A DNA stretch of 64,000 nt. Source: Amoebidium appalachense (taxonomy: Eukaryota > Protista > Ichthyosporea). The position numbers and the translations under genes were made by a program. Under the pieces are notes generated by a model, which made no database searches, had not been told where the DNA came from, and was given only the letters and a program-made list of their open reading frames with translations. The stretch is from contig CAVNZM010000005.1 in the NCBI GenBank assembly GCA_963693365.1, positions 8,006,710 through 8,070,709 of the forward strand, given 5' to 3'. Numbering within the stretch: the first letter of the stretch is position 1; each line of letters starts with the position of its first letter. Positions 1,904 through 63,475 of this stretch are shown here, piece by piece.

Positions 1904-2691
1904 TTCTTATGCCAACGTCGTCTTTACCAGCCCCAGCAAGGGGATACATGAGCCGGTGCCTGTGGATCAATCTCACAAGCAGGCACAGGTGTGCTCCACA
2001 GGAGCAATGAAAAGAATGACAAATGTCATACAGAAACATGCTCAAAAAACGTAGCCTAGTGCCTAAATAGGCAAAGGGTGTGGTGGGTGGGCAAAAACTT
2101 AGCTATAAAAATGGGGCCTAAAGAGACCTAAACGCGCTCAGTAGCGCCGCAACTGACCTCCCTGGGGCTGCGCAAGCTCATCATAGAGCGCGGCCCACAT
2201 TTTTGCCTATGGAAACATGAAGAAATGACTTAGAACCTATCAAATCCATGAAATCTACCAAAATGGAATTTTTGCTGCACATCAACCAATGAAAATTTTT
2301 CACAAGTGGCTAAAACCCCTAGATCATAAAGACCAAATCGATTGCCGCCCAATTCGGACTAGATATAACTCAAACTCATCAATATATCCATATGGCATAT
2401 CCCACAGAACATAAAAACAGCTGAAGCTCCCTAAATAAAAATGCTAGCAGCCTGAAACTTTGCACGCACATCAACCACACCATGGCCTACAGCATTATAC
2501 TACCACGAAGTTTACAGCACACTCGCAACACACAATTTCACTCCAACGGGGCTATCTAATTCTCCTGCAAAGAAAACACGTTTACAAACTTAATATTCTT
2601 ATGCCAACGTCATCTTTACCAGCCCCAGCAAGGGGATACATGAGCCGGTGCCTGTGGATCAATCTCACAAGCAGGCACAGGTGTGCTCCAC
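1904..2691 (-). repeat. 3' split-direct-repeat block (B1-A2-spacer-B2) of the YR retrotransposon
   Basis: The 96-bp B repeat TTCTTATGCCAACGTC...GTGCTCCAC occurs at 1904 and 2596. The ~505-bp A repeat 2091-2597 is near-identical to 7072-7164 + 16095-16507. B contains a GTGCCTG...CAGGCAC hairpin. Confidence 0.92.
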
Positions 2692-2697
2692 CACTCC

Positions 2698-3718
2698 CTA
2701 CCTGGCACGGGAAGGAACGAACCATGCCGTGGGTGACTGATGCAGCGCTGCAGCCCGGGCAAGGAGCGACGCAGGCACTCGAATAGAAAGAACAAGAGAC
2801 TGGCCGGCCTGCACATACATACCGGCGGAGGGAGGCATGCGATCTCCATCGACCACGCAGAGCAATCTTCTCTACTGAAACACCCCTGACATAGTCTCTC
2901 GAGGCACCGCCATGGCGAAGACTGTGAAGATGGAACCCATACTCGTTGAGGCCGAGAGAGTCACATGCCGCTTGGAACTTGGCACGCAGAACATCATACG
3001 AGAAAGGAAACAGCCGCGCAGAAGGGGGGCGCCACGGAACCAGAAAGACAGGATGGCCAACAGGGAGGGATCGGTGATGGGGACAAACTGATTTGGACCG
3101 GTCTTGGTGTCGGCCAGGCGGATGCCGCCTGTACCGGGTGGCATGTCGTGGGGAACGGGGTCGTCGGGCAAAATAAGATCCGCACGGGTGAGCATAAGCA
3201 GCTCACTGACACGAAAATAACACTCAAATCCAAGCAAAACAGCAATACCAAACAAGGGGTCAATTTTGGAATACAAATGATTGCCAATGACGAGGACCAA
3301 TGAAAACGGAAGCGGGGGCGTGGTCTTTGCTGGAACAAGCCGGTTCCAGCCCTGCAGGCTCCGTTGGGCGGCCTGCAGGTGTGGACCCAGGCGTGGCATG
3401 AAATGCTTGATGCCGGCAGCTGTGTTGACACAGCGCTGACGCTGGCCACGCGATGGATCAATGGCATAACACTCCTCAAAATACTCCACCAGGAGGTCGT
3501 CCAGTTCGGCGGGGGACTTGGCAACCAATCCAGGAACTCAACAACAGCATCCCGGTAGGCCTTGAGGGTTGGGGGCTTTATGGCCTGGTCAGCCAGAAAA
3601 CCGCGAGGGACCATGTACCAGGGGGCAACCAATCCAGGAACTCAACAACAGCATCCCGGTAGGCCTTGAGGGTTGGGGGCTTTATGGCCTGGTCAGCCAG
3701 AAAACCGCGAGGGACCAT
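2698..3718 (-). pseudogene. Tyrosine recombinase of the Ngaro-type element (frameshifted)
   Basis: Catalytic motifs FECYFRVSELL (R), TKTG (K), HSLRHGGA (HxxR) and GRW..ASLRRY (Y) are spread over several frames; 95-bp tandem duplication at 3520-3614/3624-3718. Confidence 0.9.
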
Positions 3719-5746
3719 CTGCAGGATTGTGGGCTGACGGCAGCCACACACAATACAAACGAATGTCGAGAGCAAGCGTGTAGGCAGCCACCTGGCGGCA
3801 TACACGGTTCAGGCGTCGGGATGCTGAACGACCCTTAGCAACAGCCCCAAGCAGCGCCGTCGAATCAAGGCCCCAAAGGTAGCGGGAGCCCCAGGCAGCC
3901 GTAGACCGACCTAATCGACGAAGCCCCAGGAGCAAGGCTTCTCCCTCCAGAATGTTGATGTGGTTGGAGTGGCGCCAACGATGACTGATGTTGGTGGTCC
4001 ACCGGCTACCAACAGCTGCCAGGATAGGTGCCGGGGGGGCGGACAGGCTTGGCTCGTGCACAGGACCAGACAGCTGGCTGTAGTGGCCACGCCGGTTGCA
4101 GTGAGGCAGCACTTCGCGGAGAAGCGTTGCTGGAAGCACCCAGGGTACCACTCCACCACCCAACAAGGAAGCATCAGTGCAGAACATGGTGCTAGCAAAC
4201 CCAGAACGCAAATCACAACGCATCAAAGGGGCCAAAGCACACATCGCCTGAAGCTCCCACACCACGGGCGGGGGAAGGGGCTGTTCCCGTCCCCCCAGCT
4301 GCTCCACAAAACTGTAGACGGCACTCAGAACCGACAAAAGCGGCCGCTGCAGCAGTGCCGCCCACACCCAACCACCAAGGAACTCCTGCAAACGGAGCTG
4401 CGTGACGACACCACGACGCAACACGGCCTGGGTTTCCGCCACCAGACGGCACAAGGAAGCGCCAGACGGGCGCAATATCCCAGAGCGATGCATTTCCAGG
4501 CCTAGCAGCACCATAGAGGACGACGAACCAGCAGCCACATCCTTCTTGACATTGGAGGGAAGACCAGCCGGGCCGGTGACGCCATGATACGATTCACGCT
4601 GACAATTGATGGCGGTGGCATCTGTGCCGACCCAGCCACAGTCGTCCACATACAGGGCATGCTGCGTGGCCTCCACAGGCCGCGGCACTATCGCACAGAG
4701 GCGCTCAATGCGGGGCATGCCGGCTCGGTTAGCCAACTGCCCATGGACGTCTTGAGCCACAAGCACAGAATGCACCCAGCCCATGGGCACGGTCATGAGG
4801 GCCGGGTACACAAGCCGGTCGGGCCCAGAAATGCCAACAGCCTCCGAAGACACAAGCGGCAATCCGAAGTACCGCCACAGCCACTCGGGGGCAAGAAGAC
4901 GATGGAACTGATTGTCCATGTCCGACTTGCCAAAATAGAGGCAATCCTCAGGCCCCAGCAACAGATCGGCAAAATCGGCAAGGTTGGGCAGGTGCACCTG
5001 GAGGGCAGGATGATCACGGGCAAAGAACAGGTTGCCACGGCGGCCGTCAAAAATGACGCGGGCTCTGGTGTCTTTGGGGACCCCAAACAGCCCATTGATG
5101 GCCAGTGGCTTTTCCTGCGCCTCGAAATAGTGCACCATGCCGCAGTCTTGAAGCCGAAGAAGAGGGGACCGTATTCCCCACTGGGAACGTGATGCGCCGG
5201 TCGGATGCGGAGCAGCTCTGCAAGCGTCGGCGGAACAGGCTTGAGAAGGCCGCCGTCGCAGTTGGCCAAAAACGGCTGCAGTGTAGGAGACAAAAACTGC
5301 AACACGTCCACTGTGGCTCCAACCCCAGGGGGTGGCAAAGCGGCATTTGCCGCCGTGAGAGGTAGCCATCCTGTCAATACAGGGTAGGCCGCGGGGAACG
5401 CAGCCAAGACACTACTCGCGGGCTGAGCGTCATAGACACCCGCGCGTATAGCATCGTAGCTGGCCCTAAGGACAAAGGTCCACAGGGCATGGTGGTGACT
5501 GTTCAACAACCCGGTCGGGAATGGGCAAGGGCCGCCTGCCCACAGCTCGTTGAGGGCACCAAGACAACGGTTAGCCAAGGTAACCCCCTTCAGGCGGTGA
5601 GACAGACGTTGCCGACGGCGTTGACTCCGTAGACGGGCTTGTCCAGAACGGTCCGGCATAGGAATGGCCGGAACAGGAAACAAATCAGAGGCGGCAAAGA
5701 CATGACGTGGCATAGCTGTGGAATCCTTAGAAAAATTAGGGGGCAT
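3693..5746 (-). pseudogene. Reverse transcriptase-RNase H of the YR retrotransposon (one frameshift near 5150-5200)
   Basis: RVIFDGRRGN, KSDMDNQF, VPMGW, LYVDD (RT); FCTDAS, HINILE, LDS, HNPADGPSR (DIRS/Ngaro-type RNase H). Confidence 0.92.
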
Positions 5747-5823
5747 ATTTAATCAAGGGCACGTGGCAGGAAGCCACAACAAAATAATATACAGAACCGC
5801 GTGCCGAACCCCCAAAGGGCCGT

Positions 5824-6843
5824 TTAGGCCCTGTGCCCACCGGTCCCCGGAGGGGTCGATGGACCGGCTCCGGATGGGCCACTGCCGGGACCGCGCCGAG
5901 CCCGGGTGACTTCGGCGAGGGTCTTGGCTTGACGAACAGCCCGGTAGGCCAAGGCAGGGGGCAGGGGCAGGCTGCGCGCAGGGAGCTCCTCAAACTGCTC
6001 TGCAACAGCCCAGTCCCCGTTGGACTGATCAGCAGTCTGCACAGCCAGCAGACGGCGCACACCAACTTCCACAGCAGGTGACTCCTTGCGGGCCTTAGGG
6101 TCGGCGGCCAGCAGCAGATCCAGCATACGGGCAAGCGTCAGAGCCTTGACTGAGCAGTGACCGAGGCCTGGTCAGCCAAGGTGCTCTTGAGGTAGGAAGG
6201 GGGCCAGACGTTCTTTGACGCGCAGGTTGACTTTGGCGCCGCTGGAGAGCAGATAACGGCTGGGGTTGGGTTTGGAACGGCCAGAGGAACGACGGCTGCG
6301 AGAGGAACGACCGTAGCCACTGCTGCTGGAATCAGAATCCTCACGCGACGATGGGGTGTCTTCACTGCCGGTGGCGTACGCATAGACAGGCTCCTTGCCC
6401 TTTGCCCGCGCAGACAGCGTGCTCAGCAGGCCGCCGGCAGAGGGCTTCTTGGGGCGACCAGACTGGGCAACAGAGAGGGCTTGCACTTGGGCAGAAAGCG
6501 CCTGCAGCTGCTCTTGGACGTCTACACCGTCAGAACGCCGCTGGGGAGAGGGCGACCCAGGTGGGGGGGAGGCACGGCCGCTGCGAGGAATGCGACAGAG
6601 CAAGTGCAGCTGGTCGGTGACTTTCCAACCGACCATCTCAGGGTCATCAAAAGCCACCGAGCGCGCCTTGAGGGCTGAAACCACACTGTTGACGGTTTCT
6701 GCCGGCAGGCTGTTCCAGGGGAGGGCGTTGGACTGCAAAACGGCCAGACTTTTGAGGCTTGCGTCGTCCGCATCGGTAGAGATCTCCAAAAGCTTTTCGA
6801 GGAGAGCGGCCCCCTTGGCGACCAGAGCAGGAGGAGGGGCCAT
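5824..6843 (-). pseudogene. gag-like ORF1 of the YR retrotransposon (disrupted)
   Basis: ORF MAPPPAL... upstream of RT, continuing after a frameshift and stop into ...VRRLLAVQTADQSNGDWAVAEQFEE; position expected for ORF1. Confidence 0.65.
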
Positions 6844-7815
6844 TGCAATGCTCACAAACCAGACTAGAGCACGAAAACGTGAAAACGAAGACAGGAAAAT
6901 GCAAAAACGTGGGAAAACCGACACCGCAAAAAACGTCCGAAAACCAGCTAAAACGCAACGGCGCGCACGCAAAGCTCTTACCAGATGCTGCCGAAGCTAA
7001 GCGCGCGCTCCTGGGCAAAAAAAAAACTAAAGAAAAAACGAACAAGAGCGCGAAAAACGGGGACTAGAGTTGCAAAAACTTAGCTAAAAAATTGGGCCTA
7101 AAGAGACCTAAACGCGCTCAGTAGCGCCGCAACTGACCTCCCTGGGGCCGCGCAAGCTCATTATCCCCCATGTTTTAGATTAATCTTCAAGATTAAACAA
7201 TCTTGTATCCCGGGAATTCTGGAAAATCGGTCAATTAGAGTGATTAATCTTCAACATTAATCTCAACTCCCCCTCAAAAAACGGAGTTTTTTCCCGTAAA
7301 AATGGTCCGACGGGGCTGAAACTTTCCATGAGCGAAGCAAACATATATAGGTTTGAAAGCCCAGCGGCTGGGTGTGTGTTGCATATGGACTTTTCGGCAC
7401 AGCGAGAGCGTGACGGTAGGTGAATATGGATATCGAGGATCATTAATCAAGGAGCCACAGTGACTGCTGCAAGCTTGAATGATTGATTTGAGTGTGCTGT
7501 ATTGCATTATGATGTGGGGGGGGAAACGCTGCGTTTCAACAAAGAAATAGGAGAGCAATGCTTTTACACCCCTCGAGTGCAGTATACTATTGGTTGCTGT
7601 TCGAACAAGACCCATTTATGGTGTGACGTATAGCCTTTTTTAGCTGTTGTAAACAAACAACACAGGCCGTGGCTACTTTTGAGGACCCTGCTTGTAGATT
7701 ATCATCTCACACCCAACTTGAACCCGTAGCGTTGCTCTGGATACACCCTGTCGTTTTCACTTTCTTTTTGTTTTCTTGTTTTCTTTTTTTTTGTTTTTGG
7801 TGATGGACGCAAAGA

Positions 7816-9519
7816 ATGGAAGGGGACTTTGAAATAATATTTGATGATAGTGGTGGGTTTGAAGCCGGGGCAGTAGACTCAGACATCTTTAACGATTTCT
7901 TTGCTGACGAAAGCACAAGTGATACAGAAGATTCTGTTGACAACGGTGATACCACACTCACAGGAAAATGGCGTATTTATGACGCCAAGCAAGTAGAGTT
8001 AACACTCAAAGCAGACGATGTTGAAAACAGGCTTTTAGATACGTTCAGGAAGGAGACCTCGGAGATCCAGAAACGTTTGCTAACCCACTTTTCTGGAGAG
8101 CCAACCATTAGTAACGTCCTCGACCTCTTCTTTTCACCACTCATTCTCCAGACACTGCTTGAGACTATCAATATTGGACTCCGTGCACGCAAGAAGAGGA
8201 CTGCCACACTACACGATCTACACGGTTTCCTGAAAGTGATATGCTATTTGTCATTCTACGGTGTGTCCCCCTCCGTGTTCTATGATGTTAAACTGAGCCA
8301 CGCATTCCCAACCGCAAACACCTGCCTGCCCCAAGACCGGTTCATGGACATCCTGGGCGCACTCTCCCACAGTAACAGCACCCCTCACGATGGTGCAACT
8401 GACCGTACTTGGAATTTGCCAATCCGTCAAACTAATACCCGTCTTTTGCAATTCGAGCAACTGGCATCACAGCGCATGGCCGAAATGTGCTTTGTGCCTA
8501 ATATTTCCGTGCTCATTGAAGATGACGACCATCTGCGGCTAAGGTCCAAGGTAGTTGAAGAAACGGATTTTATCCGTGTCAACAACCCTATCAAAGCAAA
8601 CGGGCCCGTAAACCATCTTCTCGGCTCTCTGTTGACCGGGTGCCCCATATCGGCACATGTGGGCCAGCGCGGGCAATCGGTGGACGACATTTTCGGTGTG
8701 CTTTGGTCTCGGGTGACCACGGTTCACCCAAGTATGAATGGTTTTCGAAACCCTTTTGGGGTTGATCGGGGGTACAACTCGAAGGAACTCACAAGTGCTG
8801 CGCTTGGCATGAACCTCCTACTCCATGGGACCCACAAACGTGGTCCCAATTTTCCATTTACGTTTGGGGTCCCACCGGAGAAGGTGAAGGGCAATGTTCG
8901 ACTAGTGAGCACTGTCGGGGCTAAGGCAGCATACTGGGCTGAGAGGAAAGCGGAGAGTAAGTTCAGACCTCCCCCCCCCCCCCCCCCTTCCCCCCCCCCC
9001 CCCCCTCCCAACACACACAAACATACCGACATACCAACGATCACTGAAGGAGTGCCTCCGCCCCCCCCCCCCCCTCCCCCCCCCTCCCCCCCCCCCCCCC
9101 CCCCCCCCTTCCCCTCTCCCCACCGCAAAAAAAAAAAGGAGGAATGGCAGGTTCACAGCCCCCTCCCCCCACCCCCCCCCCCCCCCTCATCCCTCCCTCC
9201 CTCCATTACCCCCCCCCCCCCCCCCCCCCTCCCCCCCCCCCTCCCCCCCCCCCCCCCCCCCCCCCCAAAGACACACAGAAACATTCGCAAACACACCGTC
9301 ATGTACATACCAACAAGCGCACACCACACACACATGCACACACACACCCACAACGGAACCCCCCACCCCCCCACCCCCTTCCCTTCTTACCCCCCCGCCC
9401 GACCTCAAAATTCTCTTTTTTAAAAAAAAAAAAATATGTGAACAAATGTTTAGCAAATCGTACACCTCCTCCTCTCTCCTCCCCCCTCCTCCCCCCCCGA
9501 ACACACAGACACAGACACA

Positions 9520-9582
<63 letters not shown>

Positions 9583-10543
9583 CGGCAGGGTGCCCCCCTC
9601 CCCCCCCCCCCCAAAAAAAAAAATTATCTAGATAAATTAAAAATAAAAAATAAAACCAAATGAAAACAAACCCCCCGAAAAAACGGAATGAATAATATGC
9701 AATTGAAAATTTAGGGAGGGAAAAAAAAACACCCCCAGCCGACACTATATATTAGGGCAGTACTGACAAAGTCACAGTGGGTATGCACATGTGCGCACAC
9801 CCTGGCTCTCTCGCGCACATGTAGCATGTGAGACACTGACAGGGTCTATGCTTTATCAGTCTTTTTCTCAATAACTCTTTCCCAGCTCCCTCTGATTTTC
9901 TTTTATCTCATCGGCATCATGATTGCACAGGTGCCCGTGGGGGGCCGGAGGTGAAGTTAACTGCGGTTGCATACCATGCGGGGTTTGGTTCTGTCGGTTT
10001 ACTGCAAACCTCCGACCCAGCAGCTGGCAGAGGGATGTGGACTTATAGGCTTGCAAATAAGAGGTGTGTGCTTATAGCTTGCCTACGACGTATGGTGTGC
10101 AGTGTGTGTTTTTGTGTGCATGTGCGTGTGTGTGTGCGCACGCACGTGTGTGTTTGGGATATTTTGAGTTGTCCTGCCAAGTTTATGTCACGTGCGCGTG
10201 CGCACGTGTGTGTGTGTGTTTGTGTTGTACTGTGTTTGTGTTGTGTGTGTGTGTGTGTGTGTCTGCGTGTGTGTGTGCCAGTGTGTGTGTGTGTGTGGGT
10301 GTTGTGTGTGGGTGTTGTGTGTGGTTTGTGTGTTGTGTGTGTGTGTGTGTGTGTGTTTTCGTTGTGCCTTACACCATGACTGGCTGTGAGTGAGTGTGCG
10401 GATGCGAGTGTGAGTGTGTGTGTGTGTCTGCCATGGATGTGTGCCGTGGGTGTGGGTCTACGTATGGTTATGTGTGTACAGGTATCTGTGTGTGTGTGTG
10501 TGGAAGCACGACTTTTATTTTTTGTGCTTTGTGTTTATACCGT

Positions 10544-10590
<47 letters not shown>

Positions 10591-13500
10591 GTTTTTGCTG
10601 GTTTTGTGTTGTGTATGCTGTTCTGTTCAGCATTTTTTGGTGTGTTTTTTCCTGGGCTGGTTTGCATTGTTGTTACTCCCGGTTTCTTGGGCTAGGAGAC
10701 AGTATTATGCATATGCTTGTGCCGGGTGTTGGCACAGTGTGTGCGTGGCTGTGCTTGTGGGTTATGCAAAAGGATCGTGTTTGTGCGTATGTCAGTGGGT
10801 GTCTGTGGCTGTCTACCGGTGTGCTCATATGTGCTCATGTGCGTGTATGTATTTGGGGGGGGGGGGGGGGGGGGGGGGGTGGGGGGGGGGGAAAGGGGGT
10901 GGCAGAGAGGTGGAAAAGAGGGGAGGGGGAAAGTGGAGGGGGAAGGAGGGGGAGTGGGGGGGATAGGGGAAGGGGGTGGCAGAGGGGTGGAAAAGAGGGA
11001 GGGAGGGAAAGGATGGAGGGGAGGGAGGGGGGAGGAGGGGAACGAGGGGGGAGGGAGGGAACTTCCCGGGGGAGGGGGTGAGGGGTGGGGGGGGGTTGTG
11101 CATGCATGTGCTGTTGCGTGGTGTGCTCGGATCGCGCATATAAGTTTATGTTCAATCCGCACCGTCGGTGACATGCAAAATCATATCGGCATAATATGTT
11201 ATTTGTTTATAATGAACCAACAAGTGCGCACAGGGAGAAGTTGGATCTTGTGGTCACTTCCTCAATGCCCGCCTGGCTATGTATGGAGGGCACGTTGTGG
11301 GCCCGCAACATCCCTCAGCCCCACACCAACGCTATTCCCACCGCCCGTCATGATTTCCCGTCACAGCCAACCACACCCTCCGAGGCTCCTCCCCCAAGCC
11401 CAGTGGGCCAAGGGGACGATGCACAGGATAAACGAGTGGTTACCCTTACCACAGGCCAGGCATCACCTGAATGGTTTGTCTACCGTCAGTTTATGATTAC
11501 GTCCACTGGGGCTGGAGAGGTGTTACGACAATTGCGGGAAGAGGATGTCCCAAATGACGGCCAATTGGATGTTCTCCGCAACAAAATTGGCTTCCGCATT
11601 GGCAGTGTACGAGACGCAGATGTCGACGAAGTGGGAGATGCAGTCCGATCGTACAGCGAAGAAGAGCTCAACGGCATGAAGTTGCCCGAACTCAAGATTC
11701 TCGCTAGCAAAAACGGGCTGGTGATGGGGGGAAGGAAGGTTGAATTGGTTGCGAGGCTCAAAGAGCATTTTGCCGCCAGAGACGGTGCATCCGCGCAGGA
11801 CAATGCCGGCACTCGCCCACCGCCCCCTCCCACACAGGCTTCCAACCCACCGCCCCACCCGCCGTTTGCATTCACCACAACACAAGTGGCCTCTCAATTG
11901 AGCCCCTCCCTCCCCTTGCGACCGCCCCCCGCCAGGCAAGGAGGCCCCTTTGTTCCACCCAATAATCCTGCTGCACCTCAAGTGGGAGTGACTAGTGGCC
12001 CTTTTGGTGCATTTCCCTCTTTTCATCATTCCTATGTGCCCGTGCCGCCAGCGGGGTTTTCCGTGCCTGCACGTCACGTTCAACACCAGCCACCGACCCA
12101 GGCCCAATACCACTGGCCATTTGCACCTGCACCTACACACCAGCCAGCAGAGGCACCCTCACAAAACGGGCCGCGCCAAGTCGACAACTCGGTGCCCAAT
12201 AGTGTGAGTGCATCGGCGGCAGCAGCAGCAGAGGCAGCCCGTGCCCGTGCAGTTGATGTTGCCCTGCTACGTGCGTGGTTTATGAAGCCTCTGTCTACTG
12301 ACGGCATGGCGACTGGGTCACACAACGAGCCTTACGTGCGCCGGGCGTTCCCTTTGTTCCTGCAAGACCACAGTGGTTGGGAGGTAGATGGCGCTATATC
12401 CGAGCCTGGCCTTGTGTGTGTTCGCGAGCAACCGTACATGGGAGCGTCTGTGGATGGCACCTTGCGTTTGTTGAACACGTCGGATAACACAACACACAAA
12501 GCCATTCTGGAAATTAAAACAATGACGTCAGATACGACTATATCGGAGGCGACTGAGCGAGCAGCCAGATACGGCAAATTCGGCGAATGCAAATTTGGGG
12601 ATGACACCTGCCGTATTATGGTTCACAGCTCCTCCTATCGGTGCCAACTGCTGCATCATGCTGCAGTGTACGGAGTGAACCGTGCCATTTTTGCGGTGGG
12701 GGCCACACACGAGATAATATACGCTGTCGTCGTCAAGTTCCCACAGCACTTATTGGACGACTACTGCGCTGTGCTTGAAACGATCGCACGGCGGCACCTG
12801 CGGTGGGTGTACCGGAACAACCAACCCCCTTGTTTCACACCGGACGAGCTGAAGGGGTTGTCGGCAGTTGACAACGACACAGTTGTGGGTGGCTTACACC
12901 TGTGGCGTGCCCTGCACAATCTCCGCGTCAAACACGGGGGGCCCCTTCCGACTGCGGCTGCCATCCTGCTTACCGCGGTGGCCTGGTGGAACGCCACCAA
13001 GGGTGCTGTGGACATAGTTTCACATTACCTCGCCAACACCAAGCTGGACATCAAGGGCTTATCACCGGCAGCGGCGATTTACCTGCGAACAATTCAGCTT
13101 CTTTTACTTTGCTCATTCCAATGTCACCGTATCATGGTGTTGGGAGACCAATTGCAGAATGTGCAAACCTATGCCCAGGGGCGTGACTTGCTGAACCACG
13201 AAAGTTCGTTTCGAGTGTTTGTCGCCACTGTACCGGTCGATTGGAAACTGCAGCACATGCAGCACATGTCGCAATTAACAGCACAGCTGTTGTCCACGCC
13301 AAGCAGAGCCCCTGCCCCCCCCCCTGCGCCATTCCCCCAGGTTTGCACACGCATGCGCGCCACCCGAGCCACAGACACTGCCCATCGCCGTCAGTCACCA
13401 CGGATAGCGAAACGTAGCCGGTCTGCTGCACAGCAGGATGACACAGACTTGGAGGCTTCGCGGCCAGCCAAATTTCCGCGCTTGACGCAATCGCGTCGGC

Positions 13501-13796
13501 AGTATTGGGGCACCGGTGAGGGCAGAAGGTTTCGGCTATCCAAGGACAATGGGCACGTCATTGTGCAAAACGACACCAAAGGCAAATGTGCCCTGTGTGG
13601 TTTTTACGCTGGCGGCCAGCAGCAGCGAAACGTCAGGAGACACCAAGGCGGCACCACACAAGCTAGTTGTGAAGCGTGCAAAGTTCGTTTGTGCTCTAAG
13701 CGCAAGCGCAATGACCAAAAATTAAAAAACTGCTTCGAAATATGGCACACACACAAGGATATCAGAACTAGTGCTCACTGGGCTAACAACTATTAG
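7816..13796 (+). CDS. piggyBac-family DDD transposase with inserted YqaJ-like exonuclease and SAP domain and a C-terminal Cys-rich domain; exons 7816-8956, 9931-10063, 11234-13796 (1278 aa)
   Basis: GT-AG introns in compatible phases (1, 2) give one open frame. piggyBac motifs LDLFF, DRF..IL, IEDDD, VDRGY, GTHKR, WNATKGAVD. YqaJ motifs QASPEW..R..ITST, GSHNE, GASVDG, LEIKT, Y..QL. SAP MKLPELK...NGL...GRKVELVARL. C-terminal CALC..CEAC...LC...CF..WH. Confidence 0.88.
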
Positions 13797-13899
13797 ACAC
13801 GGTGGAGAGTGGAAATAACATACAGGAACATTTTCAATATCTCCGTTTTTGCCTCATTTTGAGTTGTCTTAGTATTCTTCTTATTTTTTTATTTATTTT

Positions 13900-15760
<1,861 letters not shown>

Positions 15761-17197
15761 ACACATGACACCGGGAGCCCGCTGTGCGCGCACAATTAAC
15801 ACGGTAGCTTCGTGAGCCGCGGCCGGCCGTGGCGCGGGATCCAGCCGCTGTGATTAATCTAATTCTCGGATTGATTAATCTTCTTTTACGCTCGCACCTC
15901 TTCTCGAAGGTGTATAATAAACATGGATATTATAGACATAAACACCCAAAAAAAATTACATAGGCGTTTTCTTGACTATCAAAACCAACTTTTTGCCTAC
16001 TTAACATGTATTTTTGGGCTGCTGGGTAAGTCGGTGGAAGCGCCGCAAATGTGATTAACGTTGAAGATTAATCATTTGATTACAGTGGGGTTATAGAGCG
16101 CGGCCCACATTTTTGCCTATGGAAATATGAAGAAATGACTTAGAACCTATCAAATCCATGAAATCTACCAAAATGGAATTTTTGCTGCACATCAACCAAT
16201 GAAAAATTTTCACAAGTGGCTAAAACCCCTAGATCATAAAGACCAAATCGATTGCCGCCCAATTCGGACTAGATATAACTCAAACTCATCAATATATCCA
16301 TATGGCATATCCCACAGAACATAAAAACAGCTACAGCTCCCTAAATAAAAATGCTAGCAGCCTGAAACTTTGCACGCACATCAAACACACCATGGCCTAC
16401 AGCATTATACTACCACGAAGTTTACAGCACACTCGCAACACACAATTTCACTCCAACGGGGCTATCTAATTCTCCTGCAAAGAAAACACGTTTACAAACT
16501 TAATATTATTTGTACATTATATGTACAATGTTGACCGTAACTATATGCTCCTTAGCGTCCTTTGCTTTGTCACCAATATGCCGAACCGAAAATTCCCATT
16601 TACCCGCATATTTCTTAGTTCTCATCTATGATTGGTTCACCTAAACAATTTCCTATCGCTCTGGCACCATCTTGCCACCCGCCGCACTGATCAGTTTCAG
16701 ATAACGAGTGGCTCCCACGCTGTGCAGTACAGCGGCCAACGCAGTTTGTTGCCGTTTTACACTTTTTTACTGCTGAAAACCGGCAAAAGCGTGTCCTTCC
16801 TGTGTCGCATAAAGATAGACAACCATTGGTCAATTTTTGCACATAAGCTTGTAAGCCAATGTCCTTGGGGTCTACCAAGTTTCAACTTGATCTGACATTG
16901 GGTTGTCACGCTACAGTGTCACCAATATTCGGGTCGCACCTCAAACAAAGAAAAGGTACCATCGCTTTTGTGAGCTTTGCCAATAAACCAATGTCAGAAA
17001 TGATTGAAAAATTTACAGAATAAGAGTTTACATATATATATTTAGTACGTAGGAAATTTTGGTGGAAAACTATTTCGAACTTCTCTCTCCACAATTTCTC
17101 AAATTATATGCAAAATGTTTGGATCGGGGACTTTTGGCCCGATTTGCCGGCCCGGCCGGGCGGGCCATCATAGCGAACCGGCCGATGTGTGCGCACC

Positions 17198-18628
17198 AAG
17201 AGCGGCAAGGCCAGTGGGGGTTGACAAGGGGGTCTACTTCTACAGTGGCACCAGCGACTAGGCCACGTGGCAGCATCTACCGTCATCAGGATGGCTAAGC
17301 AGGGACTGGTCGATGGAATGGACAATGTCGAAAATGCATCACCAGACGACATGCCGCCAATGTGCGAGGCATGTGCAAAGGGCAAGCAACACCGTGAGCC
17401 CTTTCCCAAGGACGGTCGGAACCGTGCTACGGAGGCTTTGGGCATCGTGCATTCTGATGTTAGTGGGAAAATTGCCACCATGTCAATTGGCGGGTGCTAC
17501 TACTACGTCACGTTCACCGACGACAAAACTGGCTTCATCGAAGTTTTCTTCATGAAGAAGAAGGAAGAAGTACTGGCTAAACTCAAGGAGTACCAGGCAC
17601 GCAATGAGAATGGTTTCCGTACCAAAATTCAAATCTTGCGCACAGATAACGGGGGGAGACAACTTCGTCCGGCATCAGGCACGAATTCACAGTCCCCCAC
17701 GCACCGGAGCAGAACGGCAAGGCAGAGCGTGAGAACCGCTCTCTGATGGAGATGGCACGGTGTATGCTGCAGGATGCAGGCCTGGGAAACCGTTTCTGGG
17801 CAGAGGCCGTCAACACAGCTGCATACATTCGCAACATCACACCTACCAATGCGCTGAATGGCATGACGCCATATGAGGCATGGTGGGGGGTGAAACCCAA
17901 AGTTAGCCATCTGCATGTATTTGGCTCGACATGCTGGGCACACATTCCGAATGCCAAGCGAACCAAGTTGGATGCCAAGAGCCACAAATGTATCTTCGTG
18001 GGGTATACATCACCGACAGCAAGGGTTATCGGCTGTGGGATCACATGCGGCGCGAGGTGATCATCCGCCGCGACGTCCGATTCAACGAGCCAGCACCCAT
18101 TGGAATGCAGATTGGAATGACCGAAGGAATTTCCAGGGCTCCAATCGGCAATCAGGAAGATTCGCCAATCGGAAATCAGGTGCCAACAGCCCGGGACACT
18201 GATGGTGACAACAGCGACGATGACGACCAACCGGCGCTTGACGAGGCAGACAGCGAGTCTGAGGACGACGGGGAGGACTGGAGGTCAGCTGCAGACGTGA
18301 TTCCTGACAGCCCCACGACCTCCATACCTGCCCGGCAGCCATCCAAGTATCCACCCAGCCTAACGCGCCGCGGTACGCGTTATCACAGCGCAGCACAGTT
18401 GAGAGTGCCAAAGACTTGGCATTGTCATCTCCCACCATCCTTACAACTATGAAGCAGGCCTTTGGAGGGCCAGATGCTGCACTGTGGAAGGCAGCAGCGG
18501 ATGAGGAGTATAAATCTCTAGTCGACAACAACACCTGGGAGCTTGTACCATCGCCTGCAGGACGGTGGGCAGTGGGCTTTCGGTGGGTCTTTGACGCCAA
18601 GCGGGGCACCGACGGAGAGATAACACGA
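17198..18628 (+). pseudogene. Ty1/Copia pol remnant (GAG-pre-integrase, integrase, start of RT)
   Basis: WHQRLGH, CEAC, VHSDVSG, FTDD, LRTDNGG, EQNGKAER, FWAEAVNTA, HVFGSTCW, WKAAADEEYKSLVDNNTWELV; frameshifts; truncated at 18628. Confidence 0.92.
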
Positions 18629-19051
18629 TTTAGCCACTTGTGAAAATTTTTCATTGGTTGATGTGCAGCAAAAATTCCATTTTGGTAGATTTCATGGATT
18701 TGATAGGTTCTAAGTCATTTCTTCATATTTCCTTAGGCAAAAATGTGGGCCGCGCTATATAATGAGCTTGCGCGGCCCCAGGGAGGTCAGTTGCGGCGCT
18801 ACTGAGCGCGTTTCAAACTTGAACTTAGGTCTCTTTAGGCCCAATTTTTTAGCTAAGTTTTTGCCCACCCACCACACCCTTTGCCTATTTAGGCACTAGG
18901 CTACGTTTTTTGAGCATGTTTCTGTATGACATTTGTCATTCTTTTCATTGCTCCTGTGGAGCACACCTGTGCCTGCTTGTGAGATTGATCCACAGGCACC
19001 GGCTCATGTATCCCCTTGCTGGGGCTGGTAAAGACGATGTTGGCATAGGAA
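18629..19051 (+). mobile_element. Truncated, inverted copy of the Ngaro A-spacer-B end
   Basis: Reverse complement of about 1904-2315, ending ...TTGGCATAGGAA at the B terminus. Confidence 0.9.
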
Positions 19052-20900
19052 CGAATAAACGAAGCATGCACACAATTAACCTGAGCCCCTCCATCGAGTA
19101 AAGCAACAGCCTTCAACTTACCATCGGCTAACCATACGTCTATGTAATGCCGGCTAAAACCAACTAAATCCTCCTCCAATTCGTGCAACACATCATCACT
19201 CACACCCAGACCCTGCCCACGAAGACTCACACCCTCGACACCTACTTGAAGCATACCTACCTGTGGTGCCTGCACGGGTGGGGTGGGGTGTGTGTGTGAC
19301 TTGGGTGGTGGTGGAATGTGTGTGGGTGCGTGTGTGGGTGTAGGTGTGTCTGCAACCTTCGTGTGCTGTGGTGGTGGTGTGTTTCTACGTGCCGTGCCTT
19401 CCCCCCCCCTTCCCCCCTTACTCGTGTGTGCCCCCCCCCCCTTCCGGAAACAATGGCACAGAAACCCCTCCCGGTGTGGTTAGAACAAACACCGGGTTGG
19501 GACAAGAAACACCGAGACCATCCACCTGTGGCTGGGGAACCTCCCCCAACCACAAAACATTCACACCTTTCATACCTTTTGGAGAATCAACCCACAAACA
19601 TTCATGCCATACCACCTCGACGCTGTCTTGAGTACCCACGACGATGCCCGGCTCCCACACGTATCGGGGCGGTGAGGGGGCAAAGGGAAGCTCAACCTGG
19701 GGTGGGGGAGGGTGAAGGTCCTCTGCAACCCTGGGGGGGACCGATACTATCCCCCCCCCTCCCTCCTTGACCCCAGCTTCCCCCTCCCCCGAAACTCAAT
19801 AGCCTTGGTAGCTACGGCAATATGCAGTAGAGTGCCCTTGCCGACCACAAAAATAACATGAACCAAAGAAAGGGCCAGGGGGAACTTCATAACCTTGGCG
19901 CAAAGCATAACCGGGAGCCCGGTCGTGCTGGGGGGGCCCACCGTGTGCACCACGGCCCCCCCTTCCCCCCTGCCCCCCTTGGCCTCTCTCACCATCAGCA
20001 CCAAACCCACCACGGCCTCCATGTCCACCCCTACCACCATTCTCTCCTCCAAACCCACCTCTATGACCACCATGCTCACCACCATTTCCACCCCCTCCCT
20101 CTACCCTGCCCACCACCACGAGCAGGATAAGGGGAAAACCTCTCGTCGAACTGCTGCTGCTGTCCTCCACGTCCACCACGCCCACGACCGCCGTGTCCAC
20201 CCCGGCCGCCGCCGCGGCCCCCTCGGAAGTCGAAGCCCCCTCGACCAGAGAGCTGGCCGACGGCCTGGGAGAGCTCAGCAACCTGCTTGACCAACACAAT
20301 GAGTGCATCTGGCTGTTCACCCTCTTTTCTTCCTCCTTTTCCCCTTTCTTTCCACTGGCTCTCTTCTTCTTATCCACCTCCATCACCTCCTTTCTATCCC
20401 TCTTGTTAAACTTCACCTCATGCATAGCAAGCAAGTGACGTTTAACATGCAGCACCACCTCATCAACATCATCATGCTCACCAAATATACGTGCAGTGTC
20501 TGTGTTCACAGAGAGAGCCTTACGTGCAAACTCAAACTTTTCTCTAGCACTCACGTCACCAGCCAACTCACAAAGATCTTCAAAGACCCTATACTCCCTC
20601 TCAAAGAATGCACGAGCTTCAACAGGGGACATGTCTAAAGTGGGAAAGGTATACTTCCATTCACGGAGCTGGGCGCGGAACGTGCGTCGCCGGTCGGCCG
20701 TCAAGTATCGGTTGACGAGCCTGGTCGTGTTATCGAGCTCGTTCTCGGGCCGGTTAAAGGCCTCGAGCTCACCATCGACGTCGTCGGTCTTGGTCTCGTC
20801 CTCTTCCTCGGGAATGAACCGTGCTGCCAGACGTTTCTGGCCTAGCGTACGGGTCACCATCTTGTCGCGCTTCTCGTCGTACTGCTGCTCGTATATATGA
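19052..20900 (-). pseudogene. Ty3/Gypsy gag and aspartic protease (disrupted)
   Basis: Gag ORF with Gly/Arg-rich tract and CCHC knuckle CYFCGRQGHSTAYC; protease ALLDGGAQVN at about 19080-19110. Confidence 0.8.
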
Positions 20901-20944: not shown

Positions 20945-22900
20945 ATTAGCTAAGTTATTTGATAGGACTCGTTTTGCATTTCTTGCCGATGATAACGAAG
21001 TCGGCTTCGTTAAAGGGTTTGAAATGCAGGTCGGCACAGGTGATAATAGGCCGGTAGTTATGCCTAGCTATAGAATAGAGCAGTATAAATTGTCCGATGC
21101 GCTAATTATAGTGAATTATATTTTTAAAATGGGTCATGTGGAGCATAGTTCGAGTCCGTGGAGAAGTCCGGAGCTATTGGTTAAGAAGCCCGACAGGTCT
21201 TGGCGTCTAGTGAACGATTACTTCTTATGCCAACGTCGTCTTTACCAGCCCCAGCAAGGGGATACATGAGCCGGTGCCTGTGGATCAATCTCACAAGCAG
21301 GCACAGGTGTGCTCCACAGGAGCAATGAAAAGAATGACAAATGTCATACAGAAACATGCTCAGAAAACGTAGCCTAGTGCCTAAATAGGCAAAGGGTGTG
21401 GTGGGTGGGCAAAAACTTAGCTAAAAAATTGGGCCTAAAGAGACCTAAACGCGCTCAGTAGCGCAGCAACTGACCTCCCTGGGGCCGCGCAAGCTCATTA
21501 TATAGCGCGGCCCACATTTTTGCCTATGGAAATATGAAGAAATGACTTAGAACCTATCAAATCCATGAAATCTACCAACATGGAATTTTTGCTGCACATC
21601 AACCAATGAAAAGTTTTCACAAGTGGCTAAAACCCCTAGATCATAAAGACCAAATCAATTGCCGCCCATTTCGGACTAGATATAACTCAAACTCATCAAT
21701 ATATCCATATGGCATATCTCACAGAACATAAAAACAGCTACAGCTCCCTAAATAAAAATGCTAGCAGCCTGAAACCTTGCACACACATCAAACACACCAA
21801 GGCCTACAACATGTTACTACTACGAATTTTACAGCACACTCGCAACACACAATTTCACTCCAACGGGGCTATCTAATTCTCCTGCAAAGAAAACACGTTT
21901 ACAAACTTAATATTGGCTCTGAACCGGGTCACAAAGGCAGACCAATGGCCTCTCCCTAACATAGACAAGCAGCTTTCACAGCTGCACGGCTATACTCACT
22001 TTGCTAAACTTGATTTAAAAGCAGCTTTTTGGCAGATAAGGCTGGAGGAGAGCAGCAATGAGGAGACTGCCTTTGCACTGGGTGACCAGCTTAGCTGTTC
22101 CAGTACAAGGTGGTGATGATGGGTTTGCTCTCCTCTCCAGCTATGTTGTGCCCGGTAATGTATAAAATCCTCCACCCTCATTTGGATGCATGCCACCCTT
22201 ATTTGGATGATGTTTTAATTAAAGGTAGGTCGTTTGAAGAGTTGGTTGAAATTGTGAAAAGGTATTTTTCGCTTTGGGTGAATCTGGTCTTCGTATTAAT
22301 GGTAGCAAGACTGTGATTGGTGTGCAGGAGGTTAAGTTTTTAGGTCATATCGTTTCTAGTAATGGTCTTGCCCCTGATCCGGAGAAAATCCGGGCCATAG
22401 TTGAGCGGCCGGCACGTCCTCAGACTGTCACTCAACTAAGGCAGTTTTTAGGTTTAACTAATTATCTTCGTCGTTATATTAAAGATTATAGTATGATTGC
22501 TTTGCCGTTAACTAGTCAGACAGGGGGGGAGAAAAAGAATAGAATAGATTAGAATGATGATGCTGTTTCTGCTTTCGAAAAGCTTAAGTTAGCTTTGCAG
22601 TCTTCAAGTATGCCTAGGCGTTCATCCTGATTTTTCGGCCGCGGGGGGGGGGGGGGGGGGGGGATGTTTAAAGTTCGATGTGATGCAAGTAAGGTTGCTG
22701 AGGGGGCAGCGTTATATCAAGTGCAGGGGGGGGGGGGGGGGCAGGATCGAGTGATTGCTTATGCTAGTCGTTCGTTTAGTGAAGTGATCGTAGATATAGC
22801 AATCCAGAGAGAGAGTCCCATGCGACCTTTTGGGCAGTCTCACAGGTATGGAGGTATATTCTCGCAGGCAGGACGTTCGAGGTCTACAACAACCCGTGTG
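20945..22900 (+). pseudogene. Ty3/Gypsy RT-RNase H remnant, interrupted by the solo Ngaro unit
   Basis: SSPWRSP, LVNDY|LALNRVT, KLDLKAAFWQI, YLDDVLI, FLGHIVS, RCDAS, VIAYASR; frameshifts and stops. Confidence 0.9.
21222..21914 (-). mobile_element. Solo A-spacer-B unit of the Ngaro element (693 bp, no ORFs)
   Basis: Near-identical to 1904-2597; sits precisely in Gypsy RT at GATTAC-TT-GGCT (D-Y-L-A). Confidence 0.92.
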
Positions 22901-29140: not shown

Positions 29141-32105
29141 TCGTGGATGATGTCCATGATGTAGGACCTCTGGTGCATGTGGAGGTGGTGGGGGTCGGAG
29201 TGGTTGAAGTCGACACCGAGCCTCTGAGCATACGGTCGAAGGGGCTCATACGACAGCTGGCCATCTTGCCGATTCGGAGCAGCTAGGTCACGGGCAGACC
29301 CAGAGCCCGGGGAGTTGGTGATGGTCGAGTCATCCACATAGTTGCCAGCACAGACCACGTCGTTGTTAGGGAAGAACCGAAGGTAGATGCACGGGCCAGT
29401 CTTCGTACGAGTGAGGCCGTGGGCAAGGAGGATGCCGTCAAGGAAGTCGTACTAAGCTTTGGAGGCTTGCTTGAGGCCGTACAGAGCCTTCTTCAATCTC
29501 CAGACCTTGCCGAGGGTGGCCATGGTGATGAAGCTGAGCCCGGGGGTTGTTTCATGTAGATGGTCTCGGTGAGTGGGCTGTTGAGGATATGGAGCCACCA
29601 TAAGAAGTTGTGGGAGCTTCAAAGAAGTCCCAGTGCCACTCGTAGCCGGGAATGTCGGAATGAAGACGTTCGCCCTTGAAAGGGGCCTTGGTGGTCTTGC
29701 CCATCATGCAGCCGTGGCAATCAGGGGTGTCACAGTCAAGGATGGAAGGGGGAGGCCAATGACGAGGTCTTTCTTCACCATCTCCATGATGCTGGACATG
29801 GCACGGTGGCCTAAACGATGATGCCAGACGGACGGGTGAACACCAGCAGTGGCAGTGAGAGCCATGGCCCGGGGGGGTGGTTGTATGACATAGTCCTTGA
29901 AGTAGTAAAGATCATTGTGAAGACGGAGGTTGACCAGGTGACGACCAGTGTTGATGTTGAAGAGAAATGACGGAGTGGATGCCTTATTCAAATCACCCTT
30001 GATGTTCTCTTTGGCAGCCTGAGACGTGGAGAGGAGGAAGGCCTCACCGGACGGAGTGTAGTATGCCTCAATAGTAAGAGAGGCAGGGCCGTGGATGGTG
30101 GTAGTGTGGTAGTGTGAATGATGATATGGCCAACGTGAGTGGCCACGATGGGGGCAGACAGTCATGTTGCAGCCAGAGTTCCAGGCAGGGTCGGAGGACA
30201 CAGGAACCGTGCTGGCATTGTATGCCGAGAAGGCAAAAGAGACGGACTTGTCGTTGCCTTGGCGATTACGGTTGGGCTTGGAGGCACGGCAGTCAGGTTC
30301 AGGGCAGTGAGCAATCTTGTGGCCGGGTTCATGACAGTAGAAGCACTCATTGTTTGAGGGAACACGGGGTCGAGCCGGGGAATCAGAATGACGGGGACCT
30401 GAGAAACGGTTACGACTGGGGGAACGGGATGTGGACCGGTAGGGAGGCTGGTAGGGAGACCGGGAACGGTTGGGCTGACGGGAGAGTCGGGAACGGAGAT
30501 CATCACCGGAGGTACGATCGAGGCGGGAGCGCAGGTCACGACGGGGAGGATCACGGGGGATGGCACTGGCAGTTAAAGCCATGCTGGACTTGGGTTGGCG
30601 GTTGTCACGGTGGTTGCGGAGTTGCATCTTGAGTTGTTGACGTAACTCAATGCCCTTGACGTGGTTGTGCAGAGACTCGAAGTCTGGGAAAGCCTTGTCA
30701 CCGAAGTGGTAGTCTTCGAGGAGACGGCTGAATTCACGGCCCGGGGTGAGATCGTCACGTGTGGTGAGCTCATTGAAGAACTTCTCCGACAGACGTACGA
30801 AGGTGATGGACTGGTCTTGCAGGGACTGAAGCTGGTTCACAATCGTCTGTAGACGACCCAGGTAGATGGTGAATGATACACCATCCTGAAGGGCGCAGGC
30901 ATCCCACTTGCGCTGGAGAAGACGAATCTGATCGGGCCGGCCTTGAAGGTAATGCTCTGACGGAATTTCCACATGGCACGGTCTGGATCCATGCCAATAC
31001 GGTACTGGGCCACGGTGGTCATCTCAGAAGGCTCGATGTTCTGCATCATATGAAGGAGAAAGCAGTTGCGGGCTTCCTTGAGTTCGACAGCAGTACCGTA
31101 GCCGTAGAAGGGGGCACACCATCGACAGGCACGGTGGTGGGGGGGACGTAGTTGTCAGCCAGAACAACGTCCACATGCTTGGCGCCCTTGGTGCCGGTCA
31201 TCATACCGAGGAATATGATTTCCCACTGGAAGTAGGTGGTACAGTCGGGGCCAGTTTTGCCTTCACCTTTCCACATGGTGATCTTGTTAAAGCCAGACTT
31301 GTTGGGATCCATGGTCGCGATGGACAGGAACTATCGCTAGATCTAGGTGTGTGTAGGGAGCTTGCACAAAGGTCGTTAACCTGAAAAATTATATAAGTAT
31401 TCGGGGCAAGGACAGGGAAGCAGAGACACAGTGGTGCAGTGTAAAAACACCACAAACACACAGGAACAAGGAACAAGGGAAACAGGAACGATCGAAGCAG
31501 TGTACACAATGATGTTTGGACACAACTTGAACTGAACTGAATTTATTTCGATCTCGTATATATGCTCAAAATTCCTTTAAGTCAAACATCATATCCGTGA
31601 TTTCCGACCAGTCGGAAATCAGATCTGTCTCTAAAAGAAACCAATCACTAAGAACTAATTGCTTTCAGAGAGATCCGGTACGCAGATATGTACACGATAG
31701 GGCACAGACACTAGCGAAGATCAACTCGTGTCATTATCGAGGAAGTGAGGGAAAGTTCTAACCCATGACACACTGCAAAGACTCAGACATACCCCACTTT
31801 ACCTTGATGATTGGTTAAAGCACGGCAACACATGAAAACTAAAGTAAATTAATGAAGTCTGATCACACATGTCAACCCAAGTGTAGCCTAAGTGTGTTAC
31901 CGTCCAATCAACACATATTAAGTAACACAAATCTACCTATTAGTAACATATATTAGTAGAAAAGAAATACGATTATACACCAAAAACAAGGAGAGGTAGA
32001 AAAGAAGATAAAGAAAGAGAAAGAGAAAGGAGAAGAGAGCATAGATCAACAAACAAGATAATAATAGTATAACTATAACTAAAGATATTTATGTACACAC
32101 GAACA

Positions 32106-51638: not shown

Positions 51639-51823
51639 TGTAACTTAGAGGTTTCTCTGTGAGACTTTATTATTTGCTGACTTCCATTGACTGGCCCGCC
51701 GGGACCTTTATATACTTGTGGTCTGGCTCACTGGAATGTTACATACTATTCCCGATTGGTCTACCCGCCGCTATGGATCTAGTCGCTACCAATCAAAGCA
51801 CTCCAATAGAATCTTCTAGACTC
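51639..51823 (-). repeat. Partial LTR of another element, interrupted at 51824
   Basis: TGTAAC terminus; TATATAAAG and AATAAA on the minus strand. Confidence 0.45.

Positions 51824-55094: not shown

Positions 55095-63475
<8,381 letters not shown>

Follow-up and report, generated by a model that had tools for sequence, protein, structure and literature searches.

Can a single transposase chain carry two nucleases, one lying inside the catalytic core of the other, and what might the second be for? This question is raised by a locus of the ichthyosporean Amoebidium appalachense, in a 64,000-nucleotide stretch of contig CAVNZM010000005.1 (assembly GCA_963693365.1, positions 8,006,710 to 8,070,709 of the forward strand), here called the window, in whose numbering all positions are given. 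A preliminary description of the window had proposed a three-exon, piggyBac-like transposase interrupted by a YqaJ/lambda-exonuclease and a SAP domain. By combining gene modeling, family-wide sequence conservation, structure prediction, and analysis of the transposon ends, we are confident that the locus is a piggyBac-type transposon whose predicted transposase has a catalytic core interrupted by a domain of the lambda-exonuclease type.

Gene model and domain architecture

The plus strand of the locus holds two long frames, 7804-9423 and 11172-13796, with repeat-rich DNA between them. Predicted splicing of three GT-AG exons on that strand, 7816-8956, 9931-10063, and 11234-13796, reproduces the proposed stop-free frame of 1278 amino acids, with every quoted motif in the stated order: IEDDD starts at residue 234, VDRGY at 316, QASPEW at 500, ITST at 513, GSHNE at 786, GASVDG at 828, LEIKT at 850, YRCQL at 893, and WNATKGAVD at 1010. 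Exon 1 encodes residues 1 to 380, comprising an acidic N-terminus, a piggyBac-type helical DNA-binding part, and the putative catalytic residues D236 (8521-8523) and D317 (8764-8766) of the first two motifs. Exon 2 encodes beta strands (residues 381 to 425) that match homologs just ahead of the nuclease, and exon 3, stop codon included, encodes residues 425 to 1278. The first predicted intron (8957-9930; 974 nt, GTAAGT..CAG) is rich in poly-C and CA repeats and the second (10064-11233; 1170 nt, GTGTGT..CAG) in GT repeats and poly-G.

The splice model was examined with a profile built from 46 homologs, holding no window sequence, which was run on pieces of the element in all six frames. The exons were recovered in order, with exon 1 matching profile positions 21 to 366, exon 2 positions 368 to 403 (independent E value [iE], 1.3e-4), and exon 3 positions 426 to 1003, and the next best piece reached an iE of 0.046. 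Skipping of exon 2 is ruled out, as a stop then arises at codon 468. The diverged paralog of a second subfamily, with an identity of about 87%, aligns over 8451-8955/8959, its match ending at the exon 1 donor in contigs of one public run (X2).

The stretch between the second and third catalytic Asp residues (D2 and D3) contains a nuclease in two parts. The N-terminal part of the lambda-exonuclease/YqaJ domain (11430-11549, plus strand, as for all coding features here) contributes Q500, W505, R509, and T514-T516, and the catalytic part (12267-12914) contributes E790, D832, E851, K853, and Q896; mapped from the alignment of a homolog, P0004, the fold spans about residues 491 to 984. Between the two parts lie a SAP motif (11667-11771, residues 570 to 604) and a Pro-rich linker (11775-12239) that is predicted to be disordered (predicted local distance difference test [pLDDT], <50). 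The chain returns to the piggyBac core at 12957-13229, where W1010-N1011, the third catalytic residue D1018 (13011-13013), and the helices after it are found, and a C-terminal Cys-rich zinc finger of piggyBac type follows at 13545-13748. Pfam recognizes YqaJ above its cut-off (E value, 2.7e-5), so that the profile match on which the proposed nuclease depended is present, and SAP just below it (4.4e-5; 23.4 versus 23.9 bits); matches to DDE_Tnp_1_7 (0.0034) and zf-Tnp_2 (0.014) are weak and both below cut-off. The D2-D3 distance is 701 residues in the window protein, compared with 101 (D346 to D447) in Trichoplusia ni piggyBac (PMC7351741). It follows that the insert amounts to about 600 residues.

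Conservation across a homolog family

A search with exon 3 returned 740 clusters (grouped at 50% identity) at E values of ≤0.001, 263 of them at 1e-10, and the 150 best of the 740 were used onward. From these and one further protein, P0001 (151 in total), the 46 with at least 850 amino acids, and not the 105 below that length, were aligned with the spliced window protein; all are predicted proteins. As the query lacked exon 1, the presence of D236 and D317 upstream in the homologs is an independent test of the single chain: D236 is Asp in 40 of the 46 (5 gaps and 1 other residue) and D317 in 45, and D1018 is kept in all. Conservation of the second active site is comparable, with E790 in 45 and D832, E851, K853, and Q896 in 46, and extends to the N-terminal nuclease motif (Q500 in 45, W505 in 45, and R509 in 44). 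In 38/46 chains, the seven catalytic residues of the two enzymes all occur together. The proposal of two nucleases in a single chain, with a third Asp found only after a large insert, thus holds well beyond this copy, as does that of a piggyBac-type Cys-rich C-terminus, whose six Cys/His residues are each kept in 41 to 45 of the 46 homologs and which matches residues 514 to 576 of piggyBat.

Across the 46 homologs, the D2-D3 distance ranges from 458 to 834 residues and the spacer between the two nuclease parts from 42 to 385, and the distance from K853 to D3 stays within 159 to 219 in every one. A family profile detects SAP in this spacer in 23/46, and Pfam places it between the nuclease parts in 13/13 homologs with a Pfam SAP match. 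The description of a nuclease split by a SAP domain and a Pro-rich linker therefore applies to this copy, whereas in the family SAP is optional and the linker is peculiar to the window protein.

The family is divergent, with median identities to the window protein of 22 to 28%, and is poorly recognized by routine annotation. Among 37 long members, Pfam calls YqaJ above cut-off in 1 and DDE_Tnp_1_7 in 2; word-based protein searches recovered just 1, 1, and 4 matches, and a single-sequence search of the PDB with P0002 returned nothing relevant. None of the protein names in 30 clusters checked mentions a transposase or nuclease, and an organism is named for 4 of the 30 representatives: Plasmodiophora brassicae, Chromosphaera perkinsii (twice), and Hondaea fermentalgiana. 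An atlas search gave one matching cluster of 56 members, eukaryotic and labeled "hypothetical protein". No DNA of relatives was found with P0043 against metagenome contigs or with an exon 3 stretch against viral contigs, and a quick tree, for which the careful search is unfinished, gave the window protein no supported sister group. One homolog, P0121 (2180 amino acids, H. fermentalgiana), is annotated as "Cytochrome c peroxidase, mitochondrial", which probably reflects a gene fusion or the merging of gene models.

Structural placement of the insert

Comparison with known structures locates the insert more precisely. The family profile matches piggyBat (9c0f; E value, 1.5e-16) in three segments, with chain residues 38 to 372, 401 to 461, and 514 to 576 corresponding to profile positions 15 to 359, 789 to 849, and 934 to 999, and between these segments it matches LHK exonuclease (3syy), SAP domains, and Mimivirus R354. 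The catalytic Asp residues line up with the piggyBat motifs in this comparison. The split match places the insert in the piggyBac insertion domain, which in T. ni comprises residues 372 to 433 and lines the channel for hairpin or flanking DNA and target DNA (PMC7351741).

Full-length structure was considered on the AlphaFold model of P0004 (pLDDT, 84.9; predicted template modeling score, 0.79). It aligns with piggyBac (6x67) at a Z score of 25.9 and a root mean square deviation (rmsd) of 3.4 over 372 residues, and as this alignment runs from model residue 62 to 881, the halves before and after the insert appear to form one core that closes around it. The same model aligns with the whole of lambda exonuclease (1avq) at a Z score of 15.2 and an rmsd of 3.3 over 208 residues (model 416 to 762). 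For the window protein, a model of exon 3 (pLDDT, 72, with the linker disordered) has lambda exonuclease as its top Foldseek match (E value, 9.7e-5), so that the nuclease is recognized by fold as well as by sequence. The predicted arrangement is thus a single RNase H core in which the three Asp residues converge and from whose insertion domain the nuclease grows out.

Transposon ends, target duplication, and empty site

The gene lies in a genuine mobile-element insertion. The complete element is an 8926-bp insertion, 7165-16090, which starts with CCCC, ends with GGGG, and is flanked by TTAT on each side (7161-7164 and 16091-16094, plus strand). The left end (7165-7265, plus strand) carries a short imperfect terminal inverted repeat (TIR), the two ends agreeing at only 7/9 of their first bases, and subterminal GATTAATCTTCAA repeats at 7178 and 7242. 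The right end (15852-16090, minus strand) carries inverted subterminal GATTAATC repeats at 15859, 15880, and 16073, so that the repeats at 7178 and 7242 are inverted relative to that at 16073.

The host of the insertion is a repeat with three uninterrupted copies in the window (ends 2184, 18759, and 21501), which serve as empty sites. When the flanks are joined over one TTAT, they differ from the three copies by 3, 2, and 2 mismatches per 100 bases, compared with 31 to 41 for seven alternative boundaries. In contigs from public runs, loose ends corresponding to the empty site occur at 7164 (X1, X2, and X9) and at 16091 (X2, X4, and X8); because the window itself may derive from X1 and X2, these two runs do not count as independent support. 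Two X1 contigs contain another left end, in which TAA is followed by CCCCAATGTAAT, 11/12 bases being as in the right end of the window element.

Variant copies

Depth in the same public-run contigs differs between ends and coding sequence. Values are 2206 and 1605 for the left end, 1394 and 1471 for the right end, and 144 for exon 3 in X2; 144 to 146, 149, and 27, respectively, in X8; and 427 for the left end and 50 for exon 3 in X1. As contig depth is not a copy number, this gap is only a hint that many internally deleted copies exist. High-depth contigs show insertions of 8 bp and 6 bp at 8261-8273, and depth drops past about 8479; this fits a non-autonomous derivative retaining about 1.3 kb of the left end. 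Contigs of X8 (at 16085 and 16040) and X2 (at 16040) continue into other sequence, one with an extra GATTAAT motif, which suggests subfamilies with differing right ends. One X2 contig links 7282 to 13960 with one letter between them and may represent a deletion derivative or a chance join in T-rich DNA.

A run of ten C at 13315-13324 (plus strand) is one C shorter in X1 and X2 contigs, a frameshift if real, and the window copy may for this reason not be intact. In a 2902-nt X1 contig, the missing C is the sole difference from the window; X8 shows no gap at this run. X8 differs from window exon 3 at 11 or more positions, with 4 synonymous and 7 nonsynonymous changes among those listed, and these differences were not used as evidence.

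Neighborhood of the element

The insertion host (2107-7164 and 16091-16510) is a very high-depth repeat that flanks minus-strand open reading frames (ORFs) as a direct repeat. These ORFs lie at 3693-5411, 4793-5752, and 6172-6996, the first of them with YVDD and RNase H-like motifs. The whole resembles a DIRS/Ngaro-type retroelement, for which Pfam gives no clear match. Further copies of the host repeat are found at 18629-19057 and 21217-21914. Elsewhere in the window, Gypsy-type pol pieces (protease, reverse transcriptase, RNase H, and integrase, with an in-frame stop ahead of the integrase core) occupy 45791-51727 (minus strand), and Copia-type fragments (gag_pre-integrs, rve, and SH3) lie at 17225-18060 (plus strand) and 29704-31023 (minus strand). 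An ORF at 55095-55841 (minus strand) partially matches N6_N4 DNA methylase (E value, 1.5e-5, below cut-off), which is unusual for a eukaryotic repeat-rich region.

Comparison with known transposons and nucleases

The element shares with piggyBac (T. ni 6x67/6x68 and piggyBat 9c0f) the DDD triad, the helical DNA-binding domain, the Cys-rich C-terminus, and the fold, as well as C-rich ends, a 4-bp duplication, and subterminal repeats, at 10 to 14% identity in structural alignments. Unlike piggyBac, it has a whole nuclease between D2 and D3, where the canonical protein has a short, three-stranded insertion domain of about 100 residues. Its duplication is TTAT and not TTAA, a target that a piggyBac survey lists only as a rare exception, and its ends start with CCCC, with C at position 4, in contrast to the canonical 12- to 19-bp TIR starting C[CAT][CAT][TGA][TAG][TGA] (PMC5381638). 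As target, TIR pattern, and insertion domain all depart from the canon, we assign the element to a divergent piggyBac-related lineage.

Element-encoded YqaJ exonucleases are shared with ISL2EU of the PHIS superfamily, in which YqaJ lies in a second ORF, the ends are GG, the target is AT, and the DDE transposase contains THAP; what YqaJ nucleases do in transposons is described there as unknown (PMC4482050). Membership in ISL2EU is ruled out by the one chain seen in homologs, the CCCC ends, and TTAT. In KolobokE, the nuclease lies downstream of the transposase domain (PMC9587614), and Kolobok elements have ends of the form 5'-RR..YY-3' with TTAA and a different transposase lineage; the nuclease position between D2 and D3 and the CCCC..GGGG ends rule this membership out as well. 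The nuclease itself resembles the lambda exonuclease/YqaJ group (1avq, LHK-Exo 3syy, Mimivirus R354, and herpes alkaline nuclease) in fold, in its E-D-ExK-Q motifs, and in the N-terminal Q..W...R motif, and differs in lying within a transposase and in being interrupted by a spacer of variable length, often with SAP. No gene for an annealing partner was seen in the element.

The preliminary description left open whether this architecture had been catalogued. The word "nuclease" is absent from the main text of the piggyBac survey PMC5381638, whose supplement was not covered and may list such elements, and the available portions of 10.1101/2021.09.26.461848, PMC5718144, and PMC4455052 do not mention such a layout. 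Literature searches for this domain combination found no description, and none yielded a paper on the Repbase subgroup piggyBacX; Repbase was not covered, so prior cataloguing is possible. The layout is thus common to a large eukaryotic family and apparently undescribed.

Possible roles of the nuclease

What the second active site might do can be considered from its position. In canonical piggyBac, the donor ends have complementary overhangs and religate seamlessly without DNA synthesis (PMC7351741), so that excision loses the donor copy. We tentatively favor a reading in which the nuclease resects the donor-site break so that repair copies the element back. The DDD core would carry out excision and integration with a 4-bp stagger, as in piggyBac, and the nuclease, tethered beside the flank, would resect the 5' strands of the donor break and destroy the complementary overhangs, with SAP steadying the 5'-to-3' exonuclease. 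Lambda-type nucleases load on 5'-phosphorylated ends and leave 3' tails for recombination. Homology-directed repair would then be forced and the element recopied from the sister chromatid, converting cut-and-paste movement into a net gain of copies, and aborted repair would produce internally deleted copies.

Several points weigh against this reading and the architecture beneath it. Deleted copies do not single out resection, as most cut-and-paste families yield them. Lambda exonuclease is a processive 5'-to-3' enzyme that acts as a trimeric ring, which may be hard to square with a transposase dimer. An opened hairpin flap would be a substrate too, and the SAP motif, given a role above, is present in only half of the aligned homologs. 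The predicted convergence of the three Asp residues depends on a rigid structural alignment of a homolog's model, and with nine C at 13315 the window frame would stop at codon 1149, upstream of the Cys-rich domain.

In the main alternative, which is conceivable if rather unlikely, the nuclease instead acts on the transposon's own ends, and so frees the family from strict TTAA. It would either trim the 4-nt 5' flap after hairpin opening or replace the hairpin step by cutting the non-transferred strand. TnsA, also of the PD-(D/E)XK type, cuts the non-transferred strand for Tn7. The TTAT target here and the TAA preceding CCCC at the other X1 left end would suit such a role, since a flap would often fail to pair with the new gap if targets are mixed. 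The location of the nuclease in the insertion domain, adjoining flank and target DNA, would suit it as well. However, the YN motif that contacts the hairpin in piggyBac (Y439 and N440) is retained as W/Y-N in 45 and 44 of the 46 homologs, and canonical piggyBac needs no such domain to integrate efficiently when its flanks are not TTAA, the flap being dispensable in vitro (PMC7351741); a processive exonuclease working on the element end would, moreover, endanger the TIR.

We consider it improbable that the nuclease works away from the transpososome, degrading competing or signaling DNA ends or opening target DNA, with its nesting a historical accident. Accessory nucleases of unknown role do occur in several unrelated transposon groups, but here the nesting site is fixed family-wide, as the K853-D3 spacing in all 46 homologs indicates, and therefore suits action in cis. 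It is less probable still that the single chain is an artefact, whether of separate genes in exons 1 and 3, of a nested insertion, or of a domesticated or dead gene. The C-run gap may indeed inactivate this copy, and the DDE part scores under the Pfam cut-off; nevertheless, two separate genes are ruled out by homologs with the same order in one predicted chain and by exons that tile the homolog profile, and the ends, the TTAT duplication, and the empty site speak for a real insertion and against a domesticated or dead gene.

Implications

Compactness of the core, targeting of TTAA, and seamless excision are the defining features of piggyBac, a main tool of genome engineering. The proteins described here have another conserved active site, placed in exactly the domain by which flanking and target DNA are held, and this is so across hundreds of divergent clusters. 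As the two ends, the duplication, and the empty site of the window element are all known, two series of point mutants of a single protein could address the role of YqaJ. If resection of the donor break is indeed its role, the family would provide a naturally occurring tool that can "cut, resect and insert" with a single chain at non-TTAA targets. More tentatively still, these proteins may represent a widespread, unnamed eukaryotic lineage in which a piggyBac transposase has engulfed a recombination exonuclease and channels its own donor break toward repair by homologous recombination, and so might have made itself replicative.

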